Numbered from the stretch's first letter, positions 33,529 through 53,513 are shown. The stretch: 64,000 bases of DNA from an uncultured Pelagibacteraceae bacterium (GCA_902555665.1 CACDTF010000004.1:3834-67833); one strand, 5' to 3'. The notes: generated from the sequence alone by a model not told the origin. Translations and numbers: made by a program.

Positions 33529-34551
33529 TCAATTAATTGCAACAGGTTTTGATGCCAGTAAACCTACTGTCTTTAGTTCAGCCTTTTTACAAAATTTTGG
33601 TTTTAGATTTTTCGAAATTAAATTCATGTCTTTTAAAACTATATCCCCCATACTAAAAAACGCTTCAGTCAATGCTCCTGCTCTGTGTGCTGAAAACAAA
33701 ATATTTTTAACTTTTCTAATTGGGTCATTTTTTCTCACTGGTTCTTTAGGGAAAACATCTGTTGCTACATAAATATCTCCTTTTTTAACTCTCTTGATTA
33801 GGTCTTTAAAATTTACAACTGCTGCTCTACTCATTAATATGAATAAAGAGTTAGGTTTCATTTTATTTATTAAACTTTTGTTTATTAAATTTTTATTTTT
33901 GGTTGTTACCGCTGCTAAAATATAAATAATTTCACATTTTTTAAACATTTGACTTAAATTAACCGGATTAAAACCGAAACTTTTAATTTTACTCTTTGAT
34001 AACCAGGGGTCATAAACATTTATATCTTTAGTGAACGGAAGTAACATTGGATATAAAGATTTCGCTAAATCACCAAAGCCAAGTAATCCAACCTTTCTTC
34101 CTGATAAAAGTGAAGCTTTTAAGTTACTTTCTAATCCATATTTTTCTCTACCTTTTACAAAATCAAAATGAGCATTATGAATGTTTCTTAATAAAGAAAG
34201 TGTCATTCCTAAAGCAATTTCAGCAACAGGTTTTGAAAATACTGGCGAAGTTGCTATAACATAAATTCCTTTCTTAGCGCAAAAAGCATAATCAACATTG
34301 TTCATAAAGTTACTCTCAACATTTATTATTGCTTTTAATTTTTTTGCTTTAGACAAAAGTTTTTTATCTAAATCAGGTTGACCCATTATAAAAGTAACCT
34401 TTTCGATATTATTTTCGTAAAACTGTCTCTTATTTTTATTCGGTGCTATTAAAACTTTATATTTTGTTTTTAATTCTTTTAGTTTCTTTTTTGTAAAAAT
34501 AAGATCTAATGTTCTTGGAAAAGGATCGGATATAACAATTGGTTTTTTCAT
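33529..34551 (-). CDS. D-2-hydroxyacid dehydrogenase family protein
   Basis: GLLGFGDLA, YDPWL, SRAAVV, DVFPKEP, SAHRAG. Confidence 0.88.
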   Translation of the reverse strand: MKKPIVISDPFPRTLDLIFTKKKLKELKTKYKVLIAPNKNKRQFYENNIEKVTFIMGQPDLDKKLLSKAKKLKAIINVESNFMNNVDYAFCAKKGIYVIATSPVFSKPVAEIALGMTLSLLRNIHNAHFDFVKGREKYGLESNLKASLLSGRKVGLLGFGDLAKSLYPMLLPFTKDINVYDPWLSKSKIKSFGFNPVNLSQMFKKCEIIYILAAVTTKNKNLINKSLINKMKPNSLFILMSRAAVVNFKDLIKRVKKGDIYVATDVFPKEPVRKNDPIRKVKNILFSAHRAGALTEAFFSMGDIVLKDMNLISKNLKPKFCKKAELKTVGLLASKPVAIN

Positions 34552-34570
34552 TAAACTTATAACAAACTTA

Positions 34571-35728
34571 TTAATTAATTATTTTTTTTATTTCTTCTAA
34601 AGTAAACGGTTTTGGTTTTTTGCATGTTGTCTTTATTTCTTGTGGTATTCCTGTCTGAGAAGCTCTCATTGTAGAATCAATTATATCTAAAACATGAAGA
34701 GATAATTCTCCATTACATCTATGCTCTAAATTATTTTCAATTGCATAAGCCATTTCTGATAAACCAGCCCCTCTGTAGTTTGCATTTGTAGGCGATTCAT
34801 TTGCTCTTGCACTCTGACTCTTTATATTAATTTTTCCTAAAGGCATCATGTCTGTTTTGTGTTCTCCCCAATTACCTCCAGCAGTAACTGAAACAAAAGC
34901 AGATCCACCAAACATATTGGGATCTGGAACAATTATTGAACCCTTGTTACCATAAAGCTCAATATGATTTCTTTGATGTGCAACAACATCGAATGATAAG
35001 GTGATTTGAATTATACAATCGTTTTCAAACTGAATTGTTGCTAAATAAGTGGTTGGTGTTTCAACTTTAAATTTTTGACCTTTTTTTGGACCAATTCCGA
35101 TTTCTCTTTCTTCAAAAACTTTTGTACATCTTCCTTGCACTTGTTTTGCTGGTCCAATTAAATTTACTAATGCAGTAAAATAATATGGGCCCATATCAAT
35201 TACAGGTCCACCTTCATTTTCTGCAAACCAACTCTCTGGATTTGGATGATAGGATTGTACACCTGGAAATGCAAATATAGCATTTCCTAATTTAATATCA
35301 CCAATTACACCGTTATCAATTAACTCTCTAGTTTTTTGAATTCCCCCGCCTAAAAAAGTATCTGGAGCATTTCCAATATAAAGATTTTTTTCTTTTGCTA
35401 GCTCAAGTAGTTTTTTTCCATCTTCAAAATTTACTGCCATTGGTTTTTCAGCATAAGAATGTTTTCTATTTTCAAGAGCCATTTTAGAAACTTCATAATG
35501 TGCTCCAGGTATCGTAAGATTTAAAATTATTTCAATTTCTTTGTCTTTTAAAAGTTCTTCTACAGTTACTGCTTCAATATTATAGTGAATTGCACACTTT
35601 TTAGCAGCTTCCATGTTTATATCTGCACATTTAACTATTCTGATATTATTAAAGTATTCCTGGGCTCTAAAATAAGTTTCAGAAATATGACCACAGCCAA
35701 TAAGACCGACTTTAAAAATTTTATTCAT
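34571..35728 (-). CDS. Gfo/Idh/MocA oxidoreductase
   Basis: GLIGCGHIS, EKPM, APDTFLG, GGPVIDMGPYY. Confidence 0.9.
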   Translation of the reverse strand: MNKIFKVGLIGCGHISETYFRAQEYFNNIRIVKCADINMEAAKKCAIHYNIEAVTVEELLKDKEIEIILNLTIPGAHYEVSKMALENRKHSYAEKPMAVNFEDGKKLLELAKEKNLYIGNAPDTFLGGGIQKTRELIDNGVIGDIKLGNAIFAFPGVQSYHPNPESWFAENEGGPVIDMGPYYFTALVNLIGPAKQVQGRCTKVFEEREIGIGPKKGQKFKVETPTTYLATIQFENDCIIQITLSFDVVAHQRNHIELYGNKGSIIVPDPNMFGGSAFVSVTAGGNWGEHKTDMMPLGKINIKSQSARANESPTNANYRGAGLSEMAYAIENNLEHRCNGELSLHVLDIIDSTMRASQTGIPQEIKTTCKKPKPFTLEEIKKIIN

Positions 35729-35734
35729 AAAGGT

Positions 35735-37579
35735 TTATACACCTTGTCTTTGTTTGCCTTTACCTTCTTTATAAAGTTTTAAAGCTTCTTCATTTTCTTT
35801 GGTAGTCGGAATTTCGAGTGTTGGGCTATCCCAAAAAGCTGATCCTTCAACCCATTTATAAGCATGAGTTTTTATTGAAATGACATAAGTTACATCAGAA
35901 GCTTTTGCTCTCTTAAATGCGGCTTCAAGATCTGAAATTGAATTAACATGTTCAGATTTAGCTCCCATACTTTCTGCATGTTTTGCAAAATCAACATCCA
36001 CTAATCCAGGTGTATTAGAACTCTTTAATAAGTTATTATATTCTTTACCACCTTTAAATAATTGAAGTCGATTAATAACTGCAAACCCACCATTATCACA
36101 AACTATAATTATTAATTTATTTTTTGTAATAACTGACGAATATATATCTGTGTTATTTAAAAGATAAGAACCATCTCCTACAAAAGAAATTACCTCTTTA
36201 TCTGGATTTGCCATTTTGATTCCAAGTGCTCCAGAAATTTCATAACTCATACAACTAAACCCCCACTCTGTTTCATGGGTATTTAGTTCTCTGGGTCTCC
36301 AAACTTGAACAACTTCACCAACTAAACCTCCTGCTGCAGTAACAGCAATATCTGTTGGGTCAGAGTTTCTGTAAATTGCGCCAATTACCTGAACATAACT
36401 TGGGATCTCTTGATTCGTAGGCGCGCTTTCTTTATCTATATGTTCATTCCATGATTTGAGTTCAGTTTGAGATTTTTTATTCCATTCATCTCCAGCTTTC
36501 CAACTACCTAAAGCTTGCGAAAGCTCAGTTAATGAAACTTTAGCATCTCCAATTACAGCTTGCGCTAAATGTTTATTAGCATCAAATCTTGATACATTTA
36601 TTGAAACTAGTTTAAAATTTTCGTTTTCAAAATTTGCCCATGAACCAGTTGTAAAATCTGCAAGTTTAGTTCCAACCGCAATTGCTAAATCTGTTTCTTT
36701 TGCTAAAGTATTTGTATTTTTTCCACCTAAACCACCAATCTGGCCTGCAAAATGAGAATGGTGTCTTTTCATTGTAGAATATCCCATTACAGTTTGAGTG
36801 ACTGGTATGTTATGTTTAATTGCAAATTGACTTAACTCATCCATTGCATCTGAGTAAAAAACTCCACCACCAGAAATTAAAATTGGATTTTTAGATGACT
36901 TAATTTTTTCTGCTGCCTCTTTGATTTGAAATTCATCTGGTCTTGGTCTTCTAATCGCATGTACTCTTTCTTTAAAAAATTCTTCAGGGTAATCAAAGGT
37001 TTGACCTTGTATATCTTGACTTAAAGCTATACATGCAGGACCGCAATCCGCAGGATCTAACATTGTTTGAACTGCTGCTGGGAATGATTGAATAATCTGT
37101 TCTGGTCTAGTTATTCGATCAAAATATCTTGTTACAGGTTTAAATGCATCATTGGCTGTTATTCCTGGATTATTAAAATGCTCAACTTGTTGTAAAACTG
37201 GATCTGGCATTCTATTTGCATAGGTGTCTCCAGGTAAAAATAAAATTGGCAATCTGTTACTCATAGCAACTGCAGCAGCTGTAACCATATTTGTTGCCCC
37301 AGGTCCAACAGAGGATGTTGCTATAAAAATTTGTTGTCTTCTTTTAGCTCTTGCATAACCAATTCCAGTAAGAGCCATATTTTGTTCATGGTGTCCTCTG
37401 TAAGTTGGAAGATCTTTTTGATTTTCTTCTAGTGCTTGACCTAAACAAGCTACATTACCATGTCCAAAAATTCCAAAGACACCTGGAAATAAAGGTTCTT
37501 TTTTACCATTAATTAATATTTTTTGAGCAATTAAATATTTAACAATTGCATGAGCACAAGTAAGGGTAATTTTCTTCAT
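35735..37579 (-). CDS. iolD: THcHDO hydrolase (ThDP-dependent inositol ring opening)
   Basis: IFGHGNV, EQNMA, TSSVGPGATNMVTAA, PDPVLQQVE, GFSCMSYEI, GDGSYL. Confidence 0.96.
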   Translation of the reverse strand: MKKITLTCAHAIVKYLIAQKILINGKKEPLFPGVFGIFGHGNVACLGQALEENQKDLPTYRGHHEQNMALTGIGYARAKRRQQIFIATSSVGPGATNMVTAAAVAMSNRLPILFLPGDTYANRMPDPVLQQVEHFNNPGITANDAFKPVTRYFDRITRPEQIIQSFPAAVQTMLDPADCGPACIALSQDIQGQTFDYPEEFFKERVHAIRRPRPDEFQIKEAAEKIKSSKNPILISGGGVFYSDAMDELSQFAIKHNIPVTQTVMGYSTMKRHHSHFAGQIGGLGGKNTNTLAKETDLAIAVGTKLADFTTGSWANFENENFKLVSINVSRFDANKHLAQAVIGDAKVSLTELSQALGSWKAGDEWNKKSQTELKSWNEHIDKESAPTNQEIPSYVQVIGAIYRNSDPTDIAVTAAGGLVGEVVQVWRPRELNTHETEWGFSCMSYEISGALGIKMANPDKEVISFVGDGSYLLNNTDIYSSVITKNKLIIIVCDNGGFAVINRLQLFKGGKEYNNLLKSSNTPGLVDVDFAKHAESMGAKSEHVNSISDLEAAFKRAKASDVTYVISIKTHAYKWVEGSAFWDSPTLEIPTTKENEEALKLYKEGKGKQRQGV

Positions 37580-37671: not shown

Positions 37672-39114
37672 ATGTACGAAAAATTTGGACAATTCATTGA
37701 TGGTAAATGGCAACAAGCTGAAAAAAAAGAAACTTATGATGTAATCAACCCTGCAACTGAAGAAGTAATTGGAAAAGCATCTAAAGCTTCATCTATTGAG
37801 GTGCAAAAAGCATTAAAGTCAGCAGAAAAAGGTTTGGAAGTTTGGAAAAACACTGCACCATGGCAAAGAGCTTATATAATCAGAAAGATTGCTGATTTAA
37901 TAAGAGAAAGAAAAGATGTTATCGCTAAGTGGTTAACTTTAGAAGTTGGAAAACCATTGGCAGAAGGCGCAGGAGAGGCTGCGGGTGCTGCAGATATCTT
38001 TGAATGGAATGCGGAAGAAACAAAAAGAATTTATGGTCAAACTTTTCAAACTCGATTTCCTGAAACAAGAGGACATATATATTATCAGCCTGTTGGTGTA
38101 GTAGCAGCATTGATACCTTGGAATTTTCCAACACTTTTAGCAGCTAGAAAAATTTCGACAGCCTTAGCGGCTGGATGTTCTGTAATTTGTAAACCAGATG
38201 TAATCACACCAGGATCTGTAATGGAATTAATCAACATATGTAAAGACGCTGGTATTCCAGATGGAGTTGTGAATATGTTATCAGGAGATCCTGCTGAAAT
38301 TTCAAATGAATTAATGGAATCTGATATTGTTAAAAAAGTTTCCATAACCGGATCAACAAGAGTTGGAAAAATTATTTTAAAAAAAGCTGCTGAAAAAGTT
38401 CAAAGAGTTACTATGGAACTAAGTGGACATTCTCCGTTTATTGTTTGTGAAGATGTAGATATAAATAAAGTTGCCGATATAGCAATAACTGGAAAATTTA
38501 GAAATAATGGACAAGTTTGTATTTCACCTAATCGATTTTATATTCAAGAGAGTAAAAAAGATGAATTTGTTGGTGCTTTCATGGAAAGAGCAAAAAAATT
38601 AAAAATAGGAAATGGAATGGACGAGGGAGTTGTATTAGGTCCATTAAGTACTGCTAAAAGATTAGAGGAAATAGAAAAATTGGTCGAAACTACAAAAAAA
38701 GAAGGTGCCAAAGTACTGATGGGTGGAAAAAGACCATCTGGTTTCAATAAAGGATATTTTTATGAGCCAACTTTTTTTGATGATGTAAAGGATGATTTTA
38801 CGATAATGAAAGAAGAACCATTTGGTCCTCTTATTCCTATTTTGACATTCAAAACATTTGATGAAGTTTTGGAGAGAGCAAACAATAATAATTTAGGTTT
38901 ATGCAGTTATCTTTACACAAATTCAATGGAACAAGCACACATAGGTTCAGAAAAATTAGAGTCAGGTACTGTTGCAGTAAATACTGGTGTAGTTGCTGTT
39001 GCTGAAGCACCTTTTGGAGGAATAAAACAAACTGGTTATGGTCGTGAAGGTGGATCAGGTGCTATCAAAGATTATCTAAATGTGAAATATACTCACATGG
39101 GCTTAAAAATCTAA
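37672..39114 (+). CDS. NAD-dependent aldehyde dehydrogenase (GabD / 2,5-dioxopentanoate dehydrogenase AraE-like)
   Basis: PWNFP, GDPAEIS, TGST, MELSGHSP, KFRNNGQVCISP, EEPFGP, PFGG.K. Confidence 0.9.
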   Translation: MYEKFGQFIDGKWQQAEKKETYDVINPATEEVIGKASKASSIEVQKALKSAEKGLEVWKNTAPWQRAYIIRKIADLIRERKDVIAKWLTLEVGKPLAEGAGEAAGAADIFEWNAEETKRIYGQTFQTRFPETRGHIYYQPVGVVAALIPWNFPTLLAARKISTALAAGCSVICKPDVITPGSVMELINICKDAGIPDGVVNMLSGDPAEISNELMESDIVKKVSITGSTRVGKIILKKAAEKVQRVTMELSGHSPFIVCEDVDINKVADIAITGKFRNNGQVCISPNRFYIQESKKDEFVGAFMERAKKLKIGNGMDEGVVLGPLSTAKRLEEIEKLVETTKKEGAKVLMGGKRPSGFNKGYFYEPTFFDDVKDDFTIMKEEPFGPLIPILTFKTFDEVLERANNNNLGLCSYLYTNSMEQAHIGSEKLESGTVAVNTGVVAVAEAPFGGIKQTGYGREGGSGAIKDYLNVKYTHMGLKI

Positions 39115-39116
39115 AA

Positions 39117-39908
39117 ATGAGAAAAAATAAAGTTAAAGAAATGATGAAAGCGGGGAAACCTGTTATCAATGGTTGGCTTCAAATACCTAGTACTGTTTCA
39201 GCAGAAGTAATGGCCCATCAAGGTTGGGATTCTCTAACAATAGATATGCAACATGGCTTAGTTGATTACACTAATGCACTCCCAATGCTTCAAACAATTT
39301 CAACAACAGATGTAACTCCTTTGGCTAGAGTAAACTGGAATGAGCCAGGTCAAATAATGAAAATTCTAGATGCAGGTTGTTATGGAATTATATGTCCAAT
39401 GGTAAGTAATAAAGAAGAAGCAGAAAGATTTGTTCAAGCTTGCATGTACCCTCCTCGTGGTTATAGAAGTTTTGGTCCGGTTAGAGGATTAATCTATGGA
39501 GGTTCAGATTATGCAAAACATGCAAATGATGAAATGCTTAAACTAGCAATGATCGAAACAAAAGAGTCTTTAGAAAAATTAGATGAAATTATGTCAACAC
39601 CTGGCGTTGATGGAATTTATATTGGACCAGCTGATTTAAGTTTAGCAATAGGTGAAGAGCCTGGTTTTGATAAGGCAGAAAATACAAAGGCTTATTCGGA
39701 AATATTAAGAATATTAGAGCACGCAAAGAAGAACAATATATTTGCAGGCATTCATAATGGTACACCTGAATATGCACAAAAAATGATAGGTAAAGGTTTT
39801 AATTTTGTAACTATTGGAGCTGATCAGAGAGCTTTAAGTGCTGGTGCAAAAGCAGTTGTAGAAAAAATGAAAGGTTCTTCAAAAAAAGAAGATTCTAAAG
39901 CTTATTAA
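39117..39908 (+). CDS. HpcH/HpaI class II aldolase (4-hydroxy-2-oxoacid aldolase)
   Basis: IDMQHG, LDAG, YPPRGYRSFGP, MIET, IGPADL. Confidence 0.92.
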   Translation: MRKNKVKEMMKAGKPVINGWLQIPSTVSAEVMAHQGWDSLTIDMQHGLVDYTNALPMLQTISTTDVTPLARVNWNEPGQIMKILDAGCYGIICPMVSNKEEAERFVQACMYPPRGYRSFGPVRGLIYGGSDYAKHANDEMLKLAMIETKESLEKLDEIMSTPGVDGIYIGPADLSLAIGEEPGFDKAENTKAYSEILRILEHAKKNNIFAGIHNGTPEYAQKMIGKGFNFVTIGADQRALSAGAKAVVEKMKGSSKKEDSKAY

Positions 39909-40720
39909 TCTAGTTGATTTATAAATTCTTCAAATTGTTTTTTTTCTAAATTTGAAGATTGTTTCTTTCCTGGAAATTTTCCATTCATTGAATCTTTTTT
40001 AAAAGCCTTAAGAGCTTTTACTCTTTCTAGTTTTATTTCATTTCTAAGTTTCAATAAATTTCCATACGCTTTTGAATGTCTTGGGGGATTTTCTGTATCG
40101 CCACAGATATCTTCCATAAATAAATACATTACATCAGCATTTTTACCTGAACCTAATGAAACAGTAACTATATCTGTACGCTTTGAAATTTCACCCATTA
40201 CATTTTCAGGTATTACTTCACACTCAGCCGAAAAAGCACCCGCATCTTCTAATCTTTTAAACTTTTGAAAAAGTTCGTATGCTTCATCAGCAGTTTTACC
40301 CACAGCTCTTAAGCCACCAATCCAAGTAGATTTTCTTGGAACTAAACCTAAATGCCCCATTACTGGAACATCTTCCTTAGCCAGCATTTCAACTATATCC
40401 ATACTTCTTGGTGTCATAACTGCATCCGCACCATTCTCCAATGCTTTAAAAGCCCCACGCATAACATCCTCTGCAGTTACAAACTCATTTAAAACTAAAG
40501 CAGCTGTTAAAAATAAATTTTTTGAACCTTCTCTTACAGGAATTACATTTTTTGCATTTGATATAATCATATCAAATCCAGCCTTTTCAGCTGCCTCGGC
40601 TTCTTCAACACTATTAGCTGTAACTTGTGTAAATTTTCTTTTTCCTTTTGCTGCTTTTAAATCCCCAACAGTCAAAGTTCGGTTTGCCGGTTTAGCAGCC
40701 CAAGTATAGATATTCTTCAT
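39905..40720 (-). CDS. PanB-like (ketopantoate hydroxymethyltransferase fold) protein, divergent
   Basis: VPVMGHLGLVP, GGLRAVGKT, LEDAGAF..ECEV; lacks LVGDS, AD.PF and VK.E. Confidence 0.8.
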   Translation of the reverse strand: MKNIYTWAAKPANRTLTVGDLKAAKGKRKFTQVTANSVEEAEAAEKAGFDMIISNAKNVIPVREGSKNLFLTAALVLNEFVTAEDVMRGAFKALENGADAVMTPRSMDIVEMLAKEDVPVMGHLGLVPRKSTWIGGLRAVGKTADEAYELFQKFKRLEDAGAFSAECEVIPENVMGEISKRTDIVTVSLGSGKNADVMYLFMEDICGDTENPPRHSKAYGNLLKLRNEIKLERVKALKAFKKDSMNGKFPGKKQSSNLEKKQFEEFINQLD

Positions 40721-41136
40721 TATTTAACACCTTTATAAAGAATATCTCTCCTATCAATAAATTCCTCAAAGGTTTTAATGGTAATTACTGAAGGTAATAT
40801 AAATATAGATCTTTTATCTCGCTCATTTCTTATAATTCTAAAATATCCTTTTTTTATTGCAGTATCGATATAAACATTTGAGGTTAAATATGATTTCTCG
40901 ATCACTTTAAGTAATTGATTTTTAGTAATTGATTTATTTTTGTAATAAGCAAGCATAACCATATGCAACATTATCCAATGTTGTGGAGTTAAGGAGAACC
41001 AATTCAATAATTCATTGGCTAACCTTCCTTCAAAATCGCCAAGTGATATTTCTGCTAATTGAATTCTTTTTTGAGTAAGTTTTGGTATTTTTTTTTGTTC
41101 TTCAAAGTGCTTAGGGTACTTGAACTGTCTTTTCAT
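40720..41136 (-). CDS. MarR-like winged-helix regulator
   Basis: 138 aa, HTH-like segment then KKGYF...DKRSIFI wing (DxR motif). Confidence 0.7.
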   Translation of the reverse strand: MKRQFKYPKHFEEQKKIPKLTQKRIQLAEISLGDFEGRLANELLNWFSLTPQHWIMLHMVMLAYYKNKSITKNQLLKVIEKSYLTSNVYIDTAIKKGYFRIIRNERDKRSIFILPSVITIKTFEEFIDRRDILYKGVK

Positions 41137-41164: not shown

Positions 41165-42142
41165 CTATTCAATACTATTTTTACTTAGTAGCTCTTTATA
41201 AATGTTATTTACTCTATGTACTTCTGAAGCAGTGTTAAAATAACCTTCATATTCTATTTCTTCAGGTGTTACGTCAAAATGATAATGCCCAGCATCTCTG
41301 TCATGTTCGTAAGAATGAAAGTGAGTATGTTCACCGGACTCTCTTAGATTTAATTCTCCTCCAGTAGGATCACCAGTCCAAAGAACAGTATAACATTGTA
41401 ATTTTGGTCCAACAGGTTCATAAAATTGAAGAAAATCTTTTACACATTTCATTTGTTTTGGATCATAATACTCATGTTTAATATCTTTATAATCAGGTTG
41501 CACGTGTGATCTTATTTTTCCATTTAATACTCTAAATACTCCCGCAAGAGACAAGTGTTCATTATCTTTAATTTTTAAATTTTTTGATAAAGAAGACCTT
41601 ATTGCTTGGGGCAAAGAACCTTGTTCTCCATTTCTACCTTTGATTTTTATTTTAATAACTTTTCCTTGTTTACCATCTGTGTAATAAATGTTTCCAAGTC
41701 CACCATGTTTTTTTGCAGAATAGTTTTCAACAATACATTTTTTGTCTGGGCTTACTCTTGCTATTATTGACTTCGATTCATCCGTAATTAAATTTTCATT
41801 TATAACTAATTCTCCACAGTGACCATTTAAACATGACATTGCACCTGATCCAGCTCCTAAAGCATAAGATTTTTCTGAGTCAATCATTTTAGATATTTCT
41901 TTATAGTCAAACTCTGCACCAATAAATTTTGGATCATGCATATAAGGCTCTCCACCAACGTCTATTATTTTTTGATTTCCACTTATTCCCTCTGATGGAC
42001 AATCCCAATCTCTAAGATTAGGACACTCTACCACTTCTACTTCAACATTTTTGAAATTTTCAGACAATCCTCTTCTTAATGCATCTGAAATATCTTCTAG
42101 TGAGTAATCTTTAAAAGTTCCTTTTTCTATTCTTAATTGCAT
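41165..42142 (-). CDS. DUF1907 (C11orf54/PTD012-like) zinc protein
   Basis: GLSENF..V.VEVVECPNL, DVGGEPY, GAGSG, EHTHF, GHYHFDVTPEEIEYEGYFN. Confidence 0.88.
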   Translation of the reverse strand: MQLRIEKGTFKDYSLEDISDALRRGLSENFKNVEVEVVECPNLRDWDCPSEGISGNQKIIDVGGEPYMHDPKFIGAEFDYKEISKMIDSEKSYALGAGSGAMSCLNGHCGELVINENLITDESKSIIARVSPDKKCIVENYSAKKHGGLGNIYYTDGKQGKVIKIKIKGRNGEQGSLPQAIRSSLSKNLKIKDNEHLSLAGVFRVLNGKIRSHVQPDYKDIKHEYYDPKQMKCVKDFLQFYEPVGPKLQCYTVLWTGDPTGGELNLRESGEHTHFHSYEHDRDAGHYHFDVTPEEIEYEGYFNTASEVHRVNNIYKELLSKNSIE

Positions 42143-42230: not shown

Positions 42231-43175
42231 ATGATTAATAAAGATTTGAAAGTAGCTGTTCTTGGTGCTGGAGCAATGGGTTGCTTATTTGGCGGTTTGC
42301 TTGCTGAAAAAGGTTTAAGTGTAATTTTAATTGATGTTTGGAAAGAACATGTAGATGCAATTAATAAAGATGGTTTGAAAATGGATGGTCATGGCGGAGA
42401 TCGTATAATCAAAGTTAAAGCCACTTCAGATCCATCCTCGTTGGATAAAGTAGATGCTGTAATAGTTATGTGTAAAGCTACAGCTTTAGAACCGGCATTA
42501 AATAGTATTAAAAATATCATTGGAGACAAAACAGTATTCATGTCTTTTCAAAATGGTATTGGCCATGAAGCAATTATTCAAGGTATTGTAGGTAACGAAA
42601 AAGTAATAGGTGGAACAACTACTCAAGCTTCAAACATTCTAGGACCGGGTCATATAATGAATCATGGTTCGTTACCATCTTGGATTGGTGAGTACGAGGG
42701 GGGAATTACTGATAGAATTAAAGAAATAGCAGATACTTTTACAGCACATAATCTTGAAATGATTGCTGCAGAAGATGTAAAGAAAAGAAAATGGATGAAA
42801 CTTTTTGCTTTAACAGCAATTGGACCATTATCTGCAATTTTTGATCTTCATCATACTGATTTATACATAAACAATAAAGCAAACAAAGTATCTAGAGGTC
42901 TAGGTAAAAAAATAATTTTAGAGACGAGAGAAGTGGCGCTTGCAGATGGAGTTAATGTTTCAGAAGACGAATGCTTATTAATGTTTAATAAAATTGTAGA
43001 CTCAATGCAAACTAACAAGTCGTCTATGGCTTTTGATGTTCAATATAAGAGAAAGACTGAAATAGACTTTATTAGTGGCGCAGTTTCAAAAATAGGTAAA
43101 AAACATGGGATTAAAACACCTTTAAACGATCTGATGTATAAAATGATTAAAGTGAAAGAAGGAATGTACAGCTAA
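42231..43175 (+). CDS. Ketopantoate reductase family (PanE/ApbA-like) oxidoreductase
   Basis: VLGAGAMG, SFQNGIG, W.KL, KSSM..D...KRKTEIDFISG. Confidence 0.88.
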   Translation: MINKDLKVAVLGAGAMGCLFGGLLAEKGLSVILIDVWKEHVDAINKDGLKMDGHGGDRIIKVKATSDPSSLDKVDAVIVMCKATALEPALNSIKNIIGDKTVFMSFQNGIGHEAIIQGIVGNEKVIGGTTTQASNILGPGHIMNHGSLPSWIGEYEGGITDRIKEIADTFTAHNLEMIAAEDVKKRKWMKLFALTAIGPLSAIFDLHHTDLYINNKANKVSRGLGKKIILETREVALADGVNVSEDECLLMFNKIVDSMQTNKSSMAFDVQYKRKTEIDFISGAVSKIGKKHGIKTPLNDLMYKMIKVKEGMYS

Positions 43176-45060: not shown

Positions 45061-45102
45061 TAATAAATATTTTATAAAACTTATATTTGTGTATAAGTGC
45101 TT

Positions 45103-46059
45103 ATGAAAAAAATATTAGTAATCCAACCTATACATAAAGCTGGGATAGAGCTTATTAAAAATAATCCAGATTACGAATTTGAGGTTATAGAAAATACAGA
45201 TATTGAATTTCTTAAAACAAAAATAAAAGACTGTGATGGCGTTTCAATTAGAACTGCAAAACTAGCTGGAGAAGTAATTGATAGCGCAAATAAACTTAAA
45301 ATTATTTCAAGACATGGTGTTGGTTATGACAATATAGACTTAGAAAGCACAAAAAAAAATGACATTACTCTTACAATAACGGCAACCGCAAATGCAGTAG
45401 CTGTAGCTGAGCATGTAATGTTTATGCTGCTAAATATTTCCAAAAAAGGAAATATGTACGATGAAACTGTTAAAAGTGGTAAATTCAATGACCGAAATAA
45501 ATTGCCCAAAACTGTTGAATTATGGAATAAAAATATATTGATTGCTGGATTTGGTCGTATTGGACAGGCTTTAATAAAAAGATGTCAGGGATTTGAAATG
45601 AAAGTTTTTGTTTATGATCCTTTTGTGTCCAAAGAAATAATTGAAAAGCACGGTGGCACAAAAGTGGATAGTTTAGAAGAAGCCTCGAAAAGCATGGATG
45701 CTATATCCCTTCATGTGCCACTAAATGAAAAAACTAAGAATATTATCAACTATGATTTACTAAAAAATATGAAAAAAAATTGTATTATAATCAATGCTGC
45801 AAGAGGTGGAGTTATAAATGAAATCGATCTAAATAAAGCTTTAAATGAAAATTTAATTCTTGGAGCTGGTTTAGACGTTTTTGAAATCGAGCCACCTGAA
45901 CTAGATAATCCTTTACTAAAAAATAATAAAGTATTTTTAAGTCCACATACTGCTGCGTTCACAGAGGAATGTATGACAAGAATGGGTAAAGAAACAATCC
46001 AAAATATTATTGATTTTTTTGACAAAAAGTTGGAAAAATCAAAGACCGTAAAATTATAA
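45103..46059 (+). CDS. D-2-hydroxyacid dehydrogenase (SerA-like, no ACT domain)
   Basis: RHGVGYDNID, VAEH, GFGRIG, INAARGG, LDVFE.EP, SPHTA. Confidence 0.9.
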   Translation: MKKILVIQPIHKAGIELIKNNPDYEFEVIENTDIEFLKTKIKDCDGVSIRTAKLAGEVIDSANKLKIISRHGVGYDNIDLESTKKNDITLTITATANAVAVAEHVMFMLLNISKKGNMYDETVKSGKFNDRNKLPKTVELWNKNILIAGFGRIGQALIKRCQGFEMKVFVYDPFVSKEIIEKHGGTKVDSLEEASKSMDAISLHVPLNEKTKNIINYDLLKNMKKNCIIINAARGGVINEIDLNKALNENLILGAGLDVFEIEPPELDNPLLKNNKVFLSPHTAAFTEECMTRMGKETIQNIIDFFDKKLEKSKTVKL

Positions 46060-46560
46060 ATGAAAATTAATTTCAAAAATTTTGGTTTTTTAGAATTTTT
46101 AGTATCAGCATCTGCAATCTTTGTAGTTGGTATGTTATTTTGGACGGCAAGCACTAGACCAGCAGTTGAAGCTAAAGCTAATTTAGTAAAAGAAAATCAC
46201 AACAAAGTCGTTGATCTAATTAATGATGAAATTAACAAATGTGGAAACAACGATGAAGGTAAATTTACTGTTTGGGGTGATCCATGTAATGGTGAATGGA
46301 TAGCTGATAAAGTTGTTAATTACATCAATGAAAATTTAAAAATAGAAAATCCATTTTCTGATGACTCAAAAGTAAAAACTGATCCTGATCCAAGAATAAA
46401 AGCTGAAGGTAAAGCTGGTCAAGCGGTTGAAATGGGAGTGATATTTGTTATGTCCTCAAATTTTTTACCTGATCCTGGTTCTGAATGGATTGTTGGTACT
46501 TGTTTCAAATCTCCTTGTGTTGCAGCAGGAAATAATGAACTTACGTCTATTTATAGATAA
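46060..46560 (+). CDS. Degenerate type IV pilin-like membrane-anchored protein
   Basis: N-terminal NFGFLEFLV plus hydrophobic helix; Cys pairs; ENPF. Confidence 0.5.
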   Translation: MKINFKNFGFLEFLVSASAIFVVGMLFWTASTRPAVEAKANLVKENHNKVVDLINDEINKCGNNDEGKFTVWGDPCNGEWIADKVVNYINENLKIENPFSDDSKVKTDPDPRIKAEGKAGQAVEMGVIFVMSSNFLPDPGSEWIVGTCFKSPCVAAGNNELTSIYR

Positions 46561-47463
46561 TCAATTTTTAAAGATCTCTATATTGCTGCTATTTAAGGTT
46601 TCAGTTAAATATTTATAACCAATCTTTGCATATTCAAAAGGATTTGCTTTTGCTGGATCTTGCTCAGCTTCAACTACCAACCAACCTGAATAATTTTTTT
46701 TTTTTAATACATCAAATAGTGGCTTGTAATCAATACAGCCATCTCCAGGCACTGTAAAAGCACCTTCTAAAAACGCTCCTCTAAAACTCAAATCTTCTTT
46801 CAAAGATTTTTCTAAAACATTTTTTCTAATATCCTTACAATGCATATGAATTAATCTTTCACTAAAATCATTTAATATTTTAAGAGAATTGCCTTGAGCA
46901 AATAGCATGTGACCAGTGTCTAACGTAAGTTTAACACTATCATCAGTATTTTCTAACAATCTTACTGTATCTTCCTCAGTTTCTACAACTGTCCCCATAT
47001 GATGATGGTAAGCAAGAGGCATTCCTTGGCCTTCTAAATATTTTCCCATCTCTGAAATTTTTGCATAGTATTCTTTGGCTTCTTCAAGACTCATTTTTGG
47101 CCTTGTAGAAAGTTTTCTATTTGGGTCGCCTTGAATTGAACCTGAAACTTCTGCAAAAACCATGCAGGGAGAGTTGCAATCTTTGAATAATTTTAGCTGA
47201 GCTTGTATTAAATTTTTCTCTTCTTTAACTGTATTTTTTCTTAAATTTGCCCCATACCAACCTGAACAAAGATTTAAATTAAACTCTTTTAATTTAGGGA
47301 TTAATTCTTCAGAGTTTTTAGGAAATTTTCCTCCAGACTCAATTCCAATAAAACCTGCTTGACTAGCTTCTGATAAACATTGTTCTAAAGAAGTATCGCC
47401 CCCAAGTTCTGGCATGTCATCATTGCTCCATGCAATTGGTGCTATTCCTAATTTTACTGACAT
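46561..47463 (-). CDS. iolE: myo-inosose-2 dehydratase
   Basis: LGIAPIAWSNDDMPELGG, YHHHMGT, LDTGH, H.KD, FTVPGDG, VVEAEQDP. Confidence 0.97.
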   Translation of the reverse strand: MSVKLGIAPIAWSNDDMPELGGDTSLEQCLSEASQAGFIGIESGGKFPKNSEELIPKLKEFNLNLCSGWYGANLRKNTVKEEKNLIQAQLKLFKDCNSPCMVFAEVSGSIQGDPNRKLSTRPKMSLEEAKEYYAKISEMGKYLEGQGMPLAYHHHMGTVVETEEDTVRLLENTDDSVKLTLDTGHMLFAQGNSLKILNDFSERLIHMHCKDIRKNVLEKSLKEDLSFRGAFLEGAFTVPGDGCIDYKPLFDVLKKKNYSGWLVVEAEQDPAKANPFEYAKIGYKYLTETLNSSNIEIFKN

Positions 47464-47491
47464 AAATATTTTTTTTGCTAAGATATATTCA

Positions 47492-48640
47492 ATGTTTAAA
47501 TCAAATAAAACTAAAAAATTAAGTTTAGGAATTGTTGGGGGTGGACCTGGATCTTGGATTGGTCATGTACATCGAATCTCATCTAGATTTGATGATCAAT
47601 ACGAAATAGTAGCTGGTGTTTTTTCTAGAAATGTAAAACTTTCAACAAAGTTTGGGAAAAGTTTAGGCATTTCATCTGACAGATGTTACTCAAATTATAA
47701 AGAAATGGCTGAAAAAGAATCTAAGAGAAAAGATGGAATTAACGTAGTTGCTATAATGACACCTCCATCGAGTCATCAAATTATTGCTGAAAAATTTATT
47801 TCAAAAAATGTAAATATAATTTCTGATAAACCTTTTGCTGGAAATTTAGAGCAAGCAAAAAAACTTTTCAAATCGATTAAAAAAAATAAAAAAATTAAAT
47901 ATGCACTTACACATAACTACTCTGCTTATCCTATGGTTAGACAAGCAAAAATTCTTGTTGAGAGAGGCAAGATAGGAAAAGTAAGAATGATAAATGTTGA
48001 GTATGTACAGGATTGGTCTGATGGATCATCTATCAATATTAGAAATGCAAAAAAGAAATTAAAATGGAAACTTGATAAAAATATTGTTGGCTCGTCGGCT
48101 GTTTTAAATGAAATTGGCTCTCATGCTTATCATTTGGCAATGTATATATCTGGTTTAAAGGGCACAAATGTTTTTGCTGATATAAAGCAAATTTCTCCAA
48201 AGATAAAAATGGATGATAATGCTCAAGTTATGATTAATTTTACGAACGGAGCAAAAGGTATGTTCTGGACTAGCGTAATGTCTAGAGGAGGAGTTTACGG
48301 ATTGAGAATAAGAGTCTATGGTGACAAAGGAAGTTTGGAATGGGTTCAAAATGATCCTGGTTACTTAAAGTTAAATCCTTCCAAAGGTGCGGTAAAACTT
48401 TTAGAAAGAGGTTTTCATAACGCAGATTTTTCGAAGAATTTTTCTAGAATTAAATTTGGACATCCAGAAGGATATTTAGATGCGTTTGCAAATATATATA
48501 AAGAATTTGCACAATCCTTAAAAAGTAAAAAAAATAAACGATATTTTTATCCTGATGAGGATGAAGGATTTGAAACTGCAAAATTTATTAATGCATGTAA
48601 GGTTTCATCAAAAAGTAAAAAATGGGTAAAAATCAAATAA
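47492..48640 (+). CDS. Gfo/Idh/MocA oxidoreductase
   Basis: GIVGGG...IG.VHR, DKPF, YSAYPMVRQ, GHPEGY..AFAN.Y; start moved to 47492. Confidence 0.9.
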   Translation: MFKSNKTKKLSLGIVGGGPGSWIGHVHRISSRFDDQYEIVAGVFSRNVKLSTKFGKSLGISSDRCYSNYKEMAEKESKRKDGINVVAIMTPPSSHQIIAEKFISKNVNIISDKPFAGNLEQAKKLFKSIKKNKKIKYALTHNYSAYPMVRQAKILVERGKIGKVRMINVEYVQDWSDGSSINIRNAKKKLKWKLDKNIVGSSAVLNEIGSHAYHLAMYISGLKGTNVFADIKQISPKIKMDDNAQVMINFTNGAKGMFWTSVMSRGGVYGLRIRVYGDKGSLEWVQNDPGYLKLNPSKGAVKLLERGFHNADFSKNFSRIKFGHPEGYLDAFANIYKEFAQSLKSKKNKRYFYPDEDEGFETAKFINACKVSSKSKKWVKIK

Positions 48641-49636
48641 ACGTAGCATTACTTGGCCTAGGTAGAATAGGTCAAATGCATGCTGAAAACTTAACAAATC
48701 ACAAAAGTTTTAAATTAAATTATACTTTTGATATCAGTAAAAAGTTAGCTAAAAAAAATTTCAAGAAAATTTAATACAATTGATATTGGTAACCCTGAAA
48801 AAGCTTTTAGAGATAAAAATATAGATTTAATATTTATTGCATCTAGTACTTCTACTCATATTAAATTTATAAAAGAGGCAGCAAGATATAAAAAAGTTGT
48901 CTTTTGTGAAAAACCTTTGGATTTAAATATTGATAAGGTTAATAAATGTTTAAAAGAAATCAAAAAGTATAAACCTAAAATACAATTAGGTTTTAACAGA
49001 AGGTACGACCCAGGACATAGTTCAATAAAACAAGAATTTAGAAAAGGAAAAATTGGAAAACTAGAAAAAATAATTATCACCAGCCGAGATCCTGCCCCAC
49101 CTTCATTAAATTATTTAAAAGTATCCGGTGGCATATTTAAAGACATGATGATTCATGACTTTGATTTATTAAGATTTTATTTGGAAAAAGATGAAATAGA
49201 AAATATTTTTACTACAGCTAGTAATATTTCAGATAAAAGATTTGATAAAATTAGAGATTATGAACTAGCTTCATGTCTTTTGAAATCAAAACAAGGTGTG
49301 CAATGTATAATTACAAATTCTAGACACTGTAGCTTTGGGTACGATCAAAGAGTAGAGTTATTTGGTTCAAAAGGAATGTTAATATCTGGAAATAAAAGTG
49401 AGAATGAAACAGAGATTTTTACAAAAAATAACACATCACAGAAAAAACCACTTTTAAATTTTTTTATAGATAGATATGTTGATGCTTACAGGCTTCAACT
49501 TGATGAATTAGCTTTATATTCAAGAAAAAAAAAGTCCCCGATTTCAAGTTTTGAGGATGGAAGAAGAGCTTTGATTATTGCTGATGCCGCATCACAATCT
49601 TTAAAACAAAGAAAACAAATAAAAATTAAGTTTTAA
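48622..49636 (+). pseudogene. iolG: Inositol 2-dehydrogenase with a +1 frameshift in an A8 run (pseudogene, phase variant or sequencing error)
   Basis: ATG 48622 gives MGKNQINVALLGLGRIGQMHA..., stop 48772-48774. Removing one A from 48751-48758 joins it to FCEKPL...GFNRRYDP...SRDP...GGIFKDMMIHDFD...GYDQRVE (337 aa). Confidence 0.88.
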
Positions 49637-49770: not shown

Positions 49771-50694
49771 ATGAAAACATTATACAAATCATTATTAGCT
49801 TTTGTTGCTTGGGTTATGCTTTCAGTTTCTGCTTTAGCAGTAGACGTGATCGTTGTATCTCACGGACAAGCTAACGACCCGTTTTGGTCTGTTGCTAAGA
49901 ATGGTGTAGATAAAGGATGTGCGGATATGGGAATATCTTGCAAGTACACTGCACCTGCTACCTTCGACATGGTTGAAATGGCTAAATTAATTGACAACGC
50001 AGTTTCACAAAAACCAAAAGGTATTGTGATTACTCTTCCGGATGCTGCTGCTTTAGGAAAATCTGTTAAAGCTGCTATCGCTGCTGGTATCCCAGTAATT
50101 TCAATGAACTCAGGTTCAGATGACTTTGCATCACTAGGTATCAGTGCTCACGTTGGACAAACTGAGTTTGAAGCTGGTGTGGGTGGCGGACAAAAAATGA
50201 AAGCTGCTGGTGGTAAAAAAGCACTATGTGTTAACCATGAAGTTGGAAACGTTGCGCTAGACAGAAGATGTGCTGGGTTCAAAAAAGGTTTTGGTGGATC
50301 TGTTGACATCTTAGGAACTTCTAATGACCCAACAGAAATTCAAAAAGCTGTTGCTGCTAAATTAGGTGGTGGATATGACACTATCCTAACTTTAGGTGCT
50401 GGTCTTGCAGGTGAAGCTGCTCTTAAAGCATTAGAAGCTGCAGGAAAAGTTGGTTCTGTTAAACTTGGTACATTTGATATGTCACCAGGAATGTTAAAAG
50501 CTGCTGCTGCAGGTAAAGTAGAGTTTTTAATTGACCAACAACAGTACCTACAAGGTTACTTACCAATAGCAATTTTTGGTCAGTACATGAGATATGGAAC
50601 TATGCCAGCTGGAGTAGTTATGACTGGTCCAGGTTTCGTAACTCCTGATAATGCTGCTAAAGTAATTAAGTGGGCAGCTCAAGGTTACAGATAA
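49771..50694 (+). CDS. Inositol/sugar ABC substrate-binding protein
   Basis: VSHGQANDPFWSV.KNG, HVGQTE, IDQQQYLQGYLP, TGPGFVT; adjacent to iol genes. Confidence 0.88.
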   Translation: MKTLYKSLLAFVAWVMLSVSALAVDVIVVSHGQANDPFWSVAKNGVDKGCADMGISCKYTAPATFDMVEMAKLIDNAVSQKPKGIVITLPDAAALGKSVKAAIAAGIPVISMNSGSDDFASLGISAHVGQTEFEAGVGGGQKMKAAGGKKALCVNHEVGNVALDRRCAGFKKGFGGSVDILGTSNDPTEIQKAVAAKLGGGYDTILTLGAGLAGEAALKALEAAGKVGSVKLGTFDMSPGMLKAAAAGKVEFLIDQQQYLQGYLPIAIFGQYMRYGTMPAGVVMTGPGFVTPDNAAKVIKWAAQGYR

Positions 50695-50704
50695 AAAATA
50701 CTTT

Positions 50705-50739
50705 AAAAGGCCTAGCTAACTTTTAGTTAGGCCTTTTTT
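50705..50739 (+). terminator. Hairpin with U-tract between the binding-protein and permease genes
   Basis: AAAAGGCCTAGCTAA / TTAGTTAGGCCTTTTTT arms. Confidence 0.85.
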
Positions 50740-50758
50740 CATAACAAAATTCAAATTA

Positions 50759-51886
50759 ATGTCAGATAAATCGAAAAGTATCGCATCTAAAAAAACTTCA
50801 GGTCAAGACGAAAGACTTAAAGAAGTATCCAAACTAAGATTGCTTTTAAATAGACCTGAATTAGGTGCTGTTGGTGGTGCAATTTTAGTATTTATATTTT
50901 TTGGAATAGTTGCAGGTGACACTGGAATGTTCAGTGCATATGGAACTCTAAATTTTTTAGATGTCTCAGCAAATTTAGGAATAATTGCAATTGCTGCAGC
51001 AATGCTGATGATTGGTGGTGAGTTTGATTTATCAATTGGATCAATGATAGGTTTTGCAGGAATTTGTATAGCAATACCTGCAATTTACTGGGGTTGGCCT
51101 TTATGGGTAAGTATTATTTTTGCTTTTGCGATGGCGGTACTAGTTGGATACTTCAATGGTATCCTTGTTGTTAGAACTGGACTTCCATCTTTTATCGTAA
51201 CTCTAGCAATGTTGTTTATTTTAAGAGGTGCTACATTAGCAATCACAAGATTAATTACAGGAAGAACTCAAGTTCCTGGTTTAAGAGTTTTAATAGAGAA
51301 TGATCCAATCGCGTGGATGTTTGCAACTGATACATTTAAATGGTTATTCACTTGGTTAGGTTCAATGAATTTAATTGCTTTAAGAACTGATGGGACTCCA
51401 TTAGCTACTGGTATTCCACCTTCAGTAATATGGTTTATTGCAGCTACTCTTTTTGCAACATGGATATTAATGAAGACTAGATATGGAAACTGGATTTTTG
51501 CATCAGGAGGAGACAAAAACGGTGCTACTAATGTTGGTGTGCCTGTTGGAAGAGTGAAAATAAGTTTATTCATTGGAACAGCAGTTGCAGCAACAATTTT
51601 TGCAACAATTCAAGTTTTAGATGCTGGTTCTGCAGATACTATGAGAGGAAATTTAAAAGAATTAGAGGCAATTGCAGCAGCAGTTGTTGGCGGTTGTTTA
51701 TTAACTGGAGGATATGGTTCTGCAATTGGTGCAGCTTTTGGTGCATTAATATTTGGAACTGTATCTATGGGAATATTTTACACAGATGTTGATACTGATT
51801 GGTTTAAAGTTTTTTTGGGAGCAATGATGTTGATTGCTGTAGTGTTTAATAATTACATAAGAAAAAGAGTAACAGAGAGTAAATAA
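50759..51886 (+). CDS. Inositol/sugar ABC permease
   Basis: [35 protein letters not shown]. Confidence 0.92.
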
Positions 51887-52677
51887 TGTTAGAGAATTTA
51901 ATTGAGTTTAATAACATTAGTAAGTTTTTTGGGAAAGTAATTGCTCTTAAAGATGTCACAATGAAATTAAAAAAAGGTGAAATCATGTGTTTACTTGGAG
52001 ACAATGGTGCTGGAAAATCTACCTTAATTAAAACTTTAGCTGGTGTTCATAAACCTGATGAAGGTGAAATAGTAATCGAAGGTAAAAAAACTGTTTTTGA
52101 CTCACCAAAAGATGCTTTGGATATGGGAATTGGAACCGTTTACCAAGACTTAGCTTTAGTTCCATTGATGAGTGTTACAAGAAACTTTTTTATGGGAAGA
52201 GAACCTTTAAAAGGACTGCCATTTTTTAAAACTTTTGATATTGAAAAAGCAAATCAAATTGCTGCAGAGAAAATGGGTCAAATTGGAATTGACGTAAGAG
52301 ATCCGTCACAGGCTGTAGGAACAATGTCTGGAGGTGAAAGACAATGTTTAGCTATATCAAGAGCTATATATTTTGGAGCAAAAGTTTTGGTTTTAGATGA
52401 ACCAACTTCTGCATTAGGTGTTCATCAAGCCTCAATGGTTTTAAAATATGTTGTAAAAGCAGCTTCGCAAGGATTAGCTGTAATTTTAATTACACATAAC
52501 GTTCATCATGCATATCCAGTTGGTAACAGCTTTACTGTTTTAAACAGAGGTAAAAGTTTAGGAACTTTTAATAAAAAAGATATTAGTCGTGAGGAGCTTT
52601 TAGGGATGATGGCTGGTGGTGAAGAGCTTGATAAGCTTGAAGTTGAACTTGAAGAAATGAATAGGATTAACAACTAA
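51886..52677 (+). CDS. Inositol/sugar ABC ATP-binding protein (single domain)
   Basis: [25 protein letters not shown]. Confidence 0.92.
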
Positions 52678-53513
52678 TCTAGAGCTTCATATAGTGTAGG
52701 GAACATTTCTCCATCAACAGGATCTCCGTTTTTATAACCTGCTTCTTGCATTGCTTTCCTATAATTAAAACTTGTCCAATCTCCATCATAACTTATTTTT
52801 GCATCCTCTTTGGAAACTCTTAATGTATATCGGCTTAAAGTTTTATCAGGAATACTCTCATTCAAACTTCCATGTAACGTTCTCATATCAAAAACTACTG
52901 CATCCCCTAATTCGCAATCCCAATGTAAAAACTCATATTTATCTTTATTTCCTAAAATATCAGGAGGTAATTCATATTTTTTTCCATTGACTAAACATTC
53001 ATTACCTTCAATTTTATGTCCATCCTTAAACAAAACTCTCAAAAAAAATTTATTCCATAAATGTGAGCCCCTAACCCAAACAACTCCCTCATTTTTCTTT
53101 GTTGGTTGCAGTGGAAGCCACAAAACACACATTGTTCCATCCATATCAAAATAACTAATATCGTGATGAAAAGGTGTTGAAGATTTTGATCCTGCCTCTC
53201 TCAAAAACCAATTATCCATTACTAAATTAATTTTTTTTGCAGACATTAATTCTGCAGCTATCTGTGCATATGGTGATTTATAAACAAATTCTTTAAATTC
53301 GGGAATTAGATGCCAAGTCCAGTAATCCTCTAAGTAAGCTGGAACATTTTTTTTAGTTGTGTGAGATTTAAATCTAGGACTAGGATTGGAAATATCTTTT
53401 TCTATACCTGTCTTAAGTTTATTAATCCAATTAATATTGAATTTATTTTTTAGAAATATTGCGCCATCTTCTTTAAATTTTTTTATTTCATTTTCGGTTA
53501 AAATTTTGTTCAT
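52674..53513 (-). CDS. Phytanoyl-CoA dioxygenase (PhyH) family protein
   Basis: TPFHHD..YF, LWLPL, RGSHLW, GDAVVF...TLHG. Confidence 0.87.

Follow-up and report, generated by a model that had tools for sequence, protein, structure and literature searches.

Conserved genes beside iolD and iolE suggest a kinase-free route of inositol catabolism in SAR11 bacteria

Introduction

SAR11 bacteria are the most abundant marine heterotrophs. The window analysed here is a stretch of 64,000 nucleotides (GCA_902555665.1 CACDTF010000004.1:3834-67833) from an uncultured Pelagibacteraceae bacterium, which carries inositol catabolic genes between positions 33529 and 53513. This block is composed of a conserved core, namely a Gfo/Idh/MocA dehydrogenase, iolD, an aldehyde dehydrogenase (ALDH), an HpcH aldolase, 2-hydroxyacid dehydrogenase 2, iolE and iolG, and of an optional cassette. 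We find that the ALDH, the HpcH aldolase and the 2-hydroxyacid dehydrogenase (the trio) probably replace IolB, IolC and IolJ of the canonical pathway without the use of a kinase. Taken as a whole, the block is explained best, with somewhat better than even confidence, by a complete non-canonical inositol route accompanied by an optional insert for another substrate. It is a real, widespread and apparently undescribed variant of inositol catabolism; no description of the proposed route was found in the literature, of which most subscription journals were not covered.

The canonical myo-inositol pathway, which runs through IolG-E-D-B-C-J-A in B. subtilis and is encoded by iolCDEB with an IolC–DUF2090 fusion in proteobacteria, has been surveyed previously (PMC9430895). 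The survey demanded three members of a core set of four (iolB, iolC, iolD, iolE), so that clusters with iolD and iolE only were excluded by design (PMC9430895). By these criteria the IolB/C-negative capacity would have escaped notice in about 38% of the sampled Pelagibacter species and about 30% of the iolD-positive Alphaproteobacteria. The SAR11 cluster has in common with the canonical pathway IolG, IolE, IolD, an inositol-type importer, a genomic methylmalonate-semialdehyde dehydrogenase (MMSDH) and malonate semialdehyde as the likely C3 product, but it lacks IolB, IolC/DUF2090 and IolJ. Inositol catabolism without IolB and IolC is also carried out by IolM, IolN and IolO in Thermotoga maritima, where IolE and IolD are bypassed; in the SAR11 cluster, by contrast, IolE and IolD are present and conserved.

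An earlier interpretation of the window (the sequence-only reading) proposed a replaced lower pathway and offered two options for its chemistry: oxidation of 5-deoxyglucuronate followed by HpcH cleavage, or C3 oxidation followed by decarboxylation by a DUF1907 protein. All of the genes that it named were found in their places by domain and profile searches.

Results

Profile searches of the host genome (1.07 Mb, 79% complete, 30% GC; the window is its contig C4) gave no match for IolB, IolC or DUF2090. The window HpcH aldolase is 90–98% identical to proteins in Candidatus Pelagibacter records, and the host is therefore a SAR11 bacterium. Among 90 Pelagibacter genomes of the same genus, 34 are IolD-positive (n = 35 with the window genome), and IolD was found in 0/60 genomes from four other genera. 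No KduI/IolB match was found in 34 of the 35 iolD-positive genomes, the remaining one holding a weak, stop-interrupted match to a permissive model, and IolC did not exceed the cut-off in any of the 35 (best 105 versus 300 bits). These counts include the single-contig genomes G042 and G090 (98–99% complete). Loss of both genes through incomplete assembly is rejected by the 34 relatives, two of them single-contig. A nearby PfkB protein was considered as a hidden IolC and dismissed: it passes the ribokinase cut-off, lies next to rbsD/rbsABC and is absent from the minimal clusters. The class II fructose-bisphosphate aldolase family, to which IolJ belongs, was found in 0/5 genomes. An IolA-type CoA-acylating MMSDH does occur, on contig C11 inside a tricarboxylic acid cycle operon (TIGR01722, 710 bits versus a cut-off of 448). 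The absence of iolB and iolC stated by the sequence-only reading thus extends to the whole genome assembly and to 34 iolD-positive relatives, and for the IolJ family it extends to the five genomes searched; IolA, which that reading did not find in the window, is encoded elsewhere in the genome.

The core was delimited by mapping the genes of ten genomes and 80 loci. Gfo–iolD–ALDH–hpcH is a near-invariant unit (63–64 of 64 SAR11 loci), made up of Gfo/Idh/MocA dehydrogenase A (34571–35728, − strand), a nearly invariant neighbour of iolD (63/64 loci), IolD itself, the trihydroxycyclohexanedione hydrolase (35735–37579, − strand; TIGR04377, 799 bits versus a cut-off of 715), an SSADH/KGSADH-like ALDH (37672–39114, + strand; 73/73 loci) and an HpcH/HpaI class II aldolase (39117–39908, + strand). 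After hpcH, the SAR11 order continues with a variable insert and then with D-2-hydroxyacid dehydrogenase 2 (45097–46059, + strand), iolE and iolG. The minimal clusters of G039, G042 and G055 carry the trio between iolD and iolE, with the dehydrogenase directly after hpcH and no cassette. HpcH is present in 32/34 iolD-positive versus 3/56 iolD-negative Pelagibacter genomes, and 2-hydroxyacid dehydrogenase 2 in 32/34 versus 4/56; the exceptions are fragmented assemblies, and both proteins were found in 10/10 iolD-positive genomes that are at least 90% complete. The co-occurrence of the trio with iolD is far beyond chance, the genomes being kin and not independent, and the core is kept at 70–95% identity across the genus.

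The trio also recurs next to iolD/E/G in four other alphaproteobacterial families. In a comparison set of 400 other Alphaproteobacteria, 51 are IolD-positive; among them, 16 have neither IolB nor IolC, and none lacks just one. iolD, iolG, ALDH, hpcH and a related dehydrogenase occur together in G227, G505, G313 and G228, in an order that differs from that of SAR11, and parts of this set occur in G256, G516, G299 and G248. A homologue of the dehydrogenase adjoins hpcH in G505, G227, G313, G256, G228, G248, G444, G223, G211, G375 and G493, and the ALDHs linked to iol genes or hpcH, which come from seven families, group with the SAR11 enzyme in a single clade (support 87/93). The replaced lower pathway of the sequence-only reading is supported by the absence of IolB and IolC in 35 genomes and by the fact that the trio is conserved alongside iolD/E/G, both within SAR11 and in further families. 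A variant was seen in the IolB/IolC-negative genomes G201, G266 and G367, whose iol clusters include an IlvD/Edd dehydratase. L182 (1473–17400; G201) and L186 (G266) hold IlvD/Edd, lactonase, SDR and HpcH genes, with an MMSDH in G201, and L189 (G367) holds iolD, iolE, IlvD/Edd and an ALDH of the linked clade; these clusters probably represent a pyruvate-forming variant.

The upper pathway in the window is completed by IolE, the myo-inosose-2 dehydratase (46561–47463, − strand; TIGR04379, 401 bits versus a cut-off of 290), and by IolG, the inositol 2-dehydrogenase (48622–49636, + strand; C-terminal part TIGR04380, 260 bits). The iolG gene starts with an ATG at 48622 and carries a +1 frameshift, the frame changing in an A8 run at 48752–48759; because the frame is open at this site in 44/44 related loci covering iolG, we attribute the change either to an error in the assembly or to a lesion that arose recently in this strain. 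In a FastTree tree with several weak nodes, the IolDs of SAR11 and of the trio-linked clusters interleave with those of canonical iolBC clusters. A special IolD subfamily was not seen in this tree, and the mixing argues for the usual product, 5-deoxy-D-glucuronate. The inositol-type ABC importer (binding protein, permease and ATPase; 49771–52677, + strand) is variable among relatives. Its binding protein is MocB-like (316 bits versus a cut-off of 420) and has a single PDB match at E ≤ 1e-25, 4RU1 (E = 4.7e-42), which has been termed a verified myo-inositol transporter (PMC10747050); a single-sequence fold of this protein was poor (pLDDT 61) and was not used. Gfo dehydrogenase A probably has an upper-pathway role on an inositol stereoisomer. 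A copy with 72% identity lies beside iolB/iolC-like genes in G179, a single-contig genome of 1.41 Mb (loci L265 and L266) with hpcH beside iolG/iolE and with ALDH and Gfo genes beside below-cut-off iolC- and iolB-like genes; its iolD is about 115 kb from these genes.

These genes allow a complete route to be proposed. Judging from family membership, the importer would take up inositol, IolG, perhaps with extra Gfo enzymes for stereoisomers, would give inosose, IolE would dehydrate it, and IolD would open the ring to 5-deoxy-D-glucuronate. This compound has an aldehyde at C1 and a D-configured C2 (D-gluco, R). The ALDH may then act as a 5-deoxyglucuronate C1 dehydrogenase, which would give 5-deoxy-D-glucarate, and D-2-hydroxyacid dehydrogenase 2, which is nearest to PGDH-like proteins and McyI, may oxidize C2 of 5-deoxyglucarate (D-gluco, R) to 3,4-dihydroxy-2-oxoadipate. 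The latter is a 4-hydroxy-2-oxo acid, the retro-aldol cleavage of which yields hydroxypyruvate and malonate semialdehyde; the HpcH aldolase would perform this C3–C4 cut. A sink for malonate semialdehyde is present in the MMSDH on C11, a housekeeping enzyme that would convert it to acetyl-CoA and CO2. Neither a kinase nor a phosphorylated intermediate would appear in the route. The exact order and the product pair of hydroxypyruvate and malonate semialdehyde are put forward tentatively, as a proposal just short of an even bet.

The window aldolase belongs to an SwHKA-like branch, with SwHKA as its best PDB match (E = 5e-60 versus 1e-41 for HpaI). It keeps W20, H46, R71, S118, E147 and D173, and its active site is intact; the catalytic His, Arg, Glu and Asp and the equivalent of Ser116 are kept as in SwHKA from Sphingomonas wittichii RW1 (PDB 6R62). 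SwHKA accepts hydroxypyruvate via an aromatic residue in place of a conserved Leu (PMC10099721). At this F210 site, where SwHKA has Phe and HpaI-type sequences have Leu or Thr, the window aldolase has His213, so that both SwHKA and the window enzyme carry a non-Leu ring residue. SwHKA is known from biocatalysis work, and the accessible portion of PMC10099721 draws no link to inositol.

Several unrelated inserts occur at one site, between hpcH and the dehydrogenase. In the window this site holds a cassette consisting of a PanB-like protein (39905–40720, − strand; 110 bits versus a cut-off of 272; 36/59 cassette loci), a MarR-like winged-helix protein (40720–41136, − strand; no Pfam match, Atlas feature match 0.97; 28/59), a DUF1907 homologue of human C11orf54 (41165–42142, − strand; PF08925, 1XCR at E = 4.7e-39; 16/34 iolD-positive genomes), a PanE/ApbA-like oxidoreductase, which is a steady partner of DUF1907 (42231–43175, + strand; 59/59 SAR11 cassette loci), a 2OG-Fe(II) oxygenase (43176–44045, + strand; PF13640; 54/59) and a PhyH-family dioxygenase (44074–45060, + strand; PF05721, PtlH at E = 9e-9; 59/59). 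The PanB-like protein is without the usual Mg-ligand motifs, its acidic motifs being replaced when it is aligned with E. coli PanB (1M3U); contig C6 carries a canonical panB. The DUF1907 protein keeps the three Zn histidines (H266/H268/H278) and the equivalent of H217; the distance of its conserved Arg from the HxH motif exceeds that of human R263 by two residues, and the C-terminal Asp (D315) is not kept. Other inserts at the same site are a Gfo/TIM-barrel/sugar ABC set (L072:10794–20236) and a hydroxyacid dehydrogenase/Gfo/TRAP set (L090:10817–17719).

Within the SAR11 set, DUF1907 is nearly confined to iolD-positive genomes, yet it is absent from 18/34 of them, including the single-contig G042, and in SAR11 loci without DUF1907 all of the other cassette genes are absent too. 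The genes between iolD and iolE, which had been read as one route, are therefore not a single unit: linkage with iolDE holds for the ALDH, HpcH and one dehydrogenase, but not for the PanB/MarR/DUF1907/PanE/dioxygenase set. DUF1907 occurs in 1/400 of the other Alphaproteobacteria, and no match was found in the viral contigs or plasmids searched. Outside SAR11, a PanE-like gene adjoins DUF1907 in 8/13 contexts, and three contexts are firmly inositol-linked. L328 (207–14073), from another bacterium, holds a complete iolE–iolD–iolC(–DUF2090)–iolB cluster with RpiR, a TRAP importer, DUF1907, PanE and a phytase; in L320, iolB, iolG and an RpiR regulator face TRAP, PanE and DUF1907; and in L333 (4877–11896) two DUF1907–PanE pairs flank iolD and iolE in one same-strand gene run. 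Since the PanE–DUF1907 pair coexists with IolB and IolC, it is not their substitute, and the proposal that DUF1907 decarboxylation replaces these enzymes has to be given up.

The cassette instead reads as a separate feeder module for another substrate. The simplest reading of the pair is that PanE and DUF1907 would oxidize and decarboxylate a hydroxy acid that the cell imports and that would accompany inositol catabolism or feed into it. In four PanE/DUF1907 loci the TRAP binding proteins are 47–82% identical, a conservation that points to one specific imported acid; no PDB match to this TRAP protein was found at 1e-35. As a speculation that we consider improbable, the cassette could strip a one-carbon branch from a C-substituted cyclitol such as the algal C-methyl-inositols. 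An oxygenase and PanE-like oxidation would then be followed by DUF1907 decarboxylation of an acetolactate-like 2-hydroxy-3-oxo acid, giving an inosose that would enter at IolE; a C-branched cyclitol would explain both the oxygenases and the inositol link of the cassette.

Further DUF1907 contexts were recorded. L330 (1962–14492), a region interrupted by insertion sequences, has a desaturase-type oxygenase, a Rieske ferredoxin and a reductase, presumably a MocDEF-like set, facing TRAP, PanE, DUF1907, a TIM-barrel fragment and a PanB-like gene that is 65% identical to that of the window. In G299, two membrane oxygenases are encoded in the vicinity of DUF1907. Outside SAR11, the DUF1907 that comes closest in the tree (L358:1922–10975) has as neighbours a Gfo dehydrogenase, a histidine-phosphatase/dehydroquinate-synthase-family fusion and also a TRAP importer, a context in which a link to a C7-cyclitol is possible.

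Discussion

Oxidation followed by HpcH cleavage, the first option of the sequence-only reading, appears to be the best fit; the single-route gene set and the benefit attached to hydroxypyruvate are not supported. Several observations weigh against a hydroxypyruvate-forming route. The SAR11 counts come from related genomes and not from independent samples, and iolG is frameshifted in the host assembly. His213 is also found in 53–56% identical homologues within galactarate/glucarate clusters, which are expected to yield pyruvate; on this ground His213 was rejected as a proof that the enzyme is specific for hydroxypyruvate, and the residue permits the hydroxypyruvate model without proving it. UxaA/GarD-family dehydratases are encoded elsewhere in 5/5 SAR11 genomes tested. 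Among the other Alphaproteobacteria, G227, G505, G516, G228 and G256 keep IolB/IolC besides the module, about 10 of the 16 IolB/C-negative genomes are without the linked ALDH clade, and the enrichment of HpcH in IolB/C-negative genomes is weak (10/16 versus 11/35, p = 0.06). Because five genomes keep IolB/IolC and about ten lack the ALDH clade, more than one alternative lower route probably exists. Searches found neither a glycerate kinase, in either of its families, nor an above-cut-off hydroxypyruvate isomerase, nor an AGXT/SerC-like aminotransferase, the sole strong class V aminotransferase match (371 positions) being read as IscS-type. The suggested benefit of hydroxypyruvate to a serine/glycine-limited cell finds no backing in this enzyme set. 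Transketolases accept hydroxypyruvate in vitro, transketolase motifs are present on contig C8, and hydroxypyruvate may serve as a transketolase donor or be used by an unassigned transaminase. The description of the route as ATP-sparing is also not secure, because the dihydroxyacetone phosphate formed by the canonical pathway can repay its ATP and a net gain is not clear.

The same C1 oxidation could lead to pyruvate instead, if a dehydratase encoded elsewhere formed 4-hydroxy-2-oxoadipate and HpcH cleaved it to pyruvate and malonate semialdehyde, the 2-hydroxyacid dehydrogenase having a side role. The closest annotated HpcH homologues do lie in garD/gudD clusters, the clusters of G201 and G266 combine iolD with IlvD/Edd, lactonase, SDR and HpcH, that of G367 has an ALDH of the same clade, and the UxaA/GarD-family genes could be counted in favour; pyruvate, moreover, needs no special sink in SAR11. 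However, no dehydratase is linked to the SAR11 cluster across 80 loci and ten genomes, the variant dehydratase has no SAR11 orthologue (best 40–42%), and in G039 neither an enolase-type nor a sugar-acid IlvD/Edd dehydratase was found, just the biosynthetic IlvD. G042 is without an enolase-type dehydratase, the unlinked candidates are patchy, the G201/G266 genes could belong to a separate pentose route, and the strict conservation of the 2-hydroxyacid dehydrogenase would go unexplained, so that we regard pyruvate formation as unlikely. It is more doubtful still that the substrate is a different cyclitol (a stereoisomer or a deoxy-, methyl- or amino-inositol) that gives a ring-opened acid unsuited to IolB/IolC, with the trio as an alternative-substrate branch. 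Such a branch would suit the five genomes that keep both systems, the several iolD copies of G256 and G228, the extra Gfo dehydrogenases and oxygenases common in the clusters, and the resemblance of the binding protein to rhizopine MocB. Against it, IolD, IolE and IolG match myo-inositol equivalog models, the tree intersperses the linked IolDs among canonical ones, the binding protein of closest similarity with a solved structure binds myo-inositol, and SAR11 offers no other way of using what IolD makes.

The second option of the sequence-only reading, in which oxidation at C3 precedes decarboxylation by DUF1907, can scarcely be the lower pathway. The Zn site of the human β-keto-L-gulonate decarboxylase is kept, and in SAR11 the protein always occurs with the PanE-like enzyme and nearly always with iolD; nevertheless, the cassette was rejected as a replacement pathway, given its absence from more than half of the iolD-positive SAR11 genomes, G042 among them, its presence in just one of the 400 other Alphaproteobacteria, and its place beside complete iolB/iolC clusters (L328 and L320) with its own orthologous TRAP binding protein. 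The block could also be a mosaic within a sugar island, in which iolDEG are half of a pathway that leads nowhere or is decaying, with hitchhiking genes around them. The frameshift in the window iolG, the unrelated inserts at the hpcH/dehydrogenase site and the fragmented gene orientation would agree with decay, but iolG is intact in 44/44 loci, and a core that is well conserved across the genus and reassembled in another order in other families makes this very unlikely. The joint claim of a phosphate-free oxidative route with the first natural hydroxypyruvate aldolase step, used by about 40% of the sampled Pelagibacter species and by many other Alphaproteobacteria, plus a cyclitol feeder cassette, is likewise quite unlikely to hold in all of its parts.

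The proposed route by C2 oxidation to hydroxypyruvate and malonate semialdehyde resembles the E. coli glucarate/galactarate (GudD/GarD, GarL), Dahms and Weimberg routes in that an aldehyde is converted to an acid and an HpcH-family aldolase performs the cleavage without a kinase. In those routes the 2-oxo acid arises by dehydration and pyruvate is released, whereas the SAR11 cluster has no linked dehydratase and NAD-dependent oxidation at C2 is proposed instead. The cassette has a human parallel: C11orf54 is a Zn-dependent β-keto-L-gulonate decarboxylase (BKGD, EC 4.1.1.34) related to acetolactate decarboxylase (PMC12337341). Like the CRYL1 and C11orf54/BKGD pair, it combines a DUF1907 protein, in which the Zn histidines and the counterpart of H217 are kept, with an NAD(P)-dependent hydroxyacid oxidoreductase. 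Unlike the human pair, the partner is PanE-like instead of CRYL1, the R263 equivalent is displaced by an insertion of two residues, and the C-terminal Asp is not kept. The PanE–DUF1907 pair is a second lead, as a possible bacterial equivalent, linked to inositol genes, of the step that forms L-xylulose in humans. If the replacement by the trio is true, a kinase-free branch would be added to the textbook pathway, an aldolase branch known from biocatalysis would gain a natural role, and inositol would probably be a substrate that splits niches among SAR11. Isolates with the cluster are in culture (HTCC8051, and nBUS and Uisw strains).

Neighbouring genes and genomic setting

The inositol block sits inside a sugar-utilisation island with a sugar ABC system, a ROK kinase, a TTT transporter with pdxA and a ribose-type module. 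At 23538–33542 of the window lie the ROK kinase, an SDR, the TTT transporter with a divergent pdxA-like gene and a ribokinase–rbsD–rbsABC module; several relatives have an extra 391-aa gene downstream of pdxA that is not in the host genome. Two flanking genes that had been counted with the block are not core. 2-Hydroxyacid dehydrogenase 1 (33529–34551, − strand; PF02826/PF00389) is absent from minimal clusters, e.g. G039, G055 and L133, and travels with the ribose-type ABC/rbsD/ribokinase module at 29251–33542. The second PhyH-family dioxygenase (52674–53513, − strand) is sporadic and present in few related loci.

Gfo/Idh/MocA dehydrogenase B (47414–48640, + strand, likely start 47492) is variable, being absent in G039, G055 and G090; if the downstream ATG is used, its start and the divergent start of iolE are only about 28 bp apart (47463–47492). 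No riboswitch or other RNA was found in the window at Rfam cut-offs. A second sugar-acid cluster lies outside the window on contig C5 of G000 (9281–21226), with a lactonase, an enolase-type enzyme, an FAH-like protein, an SDR, TRAP, a 2-hydroxyacid dehydrogenase, and IlvD/Edd and UxaA/GarD-family dehydratases. A hypothetical 166-aa protein (46060–46560, + strand; no Pfam match) is found sporadically, in a minority of loci; it has a short pilin-like hydrophobic N-terminus, abuts the iolE stop and is probably unrelated to the pathway.

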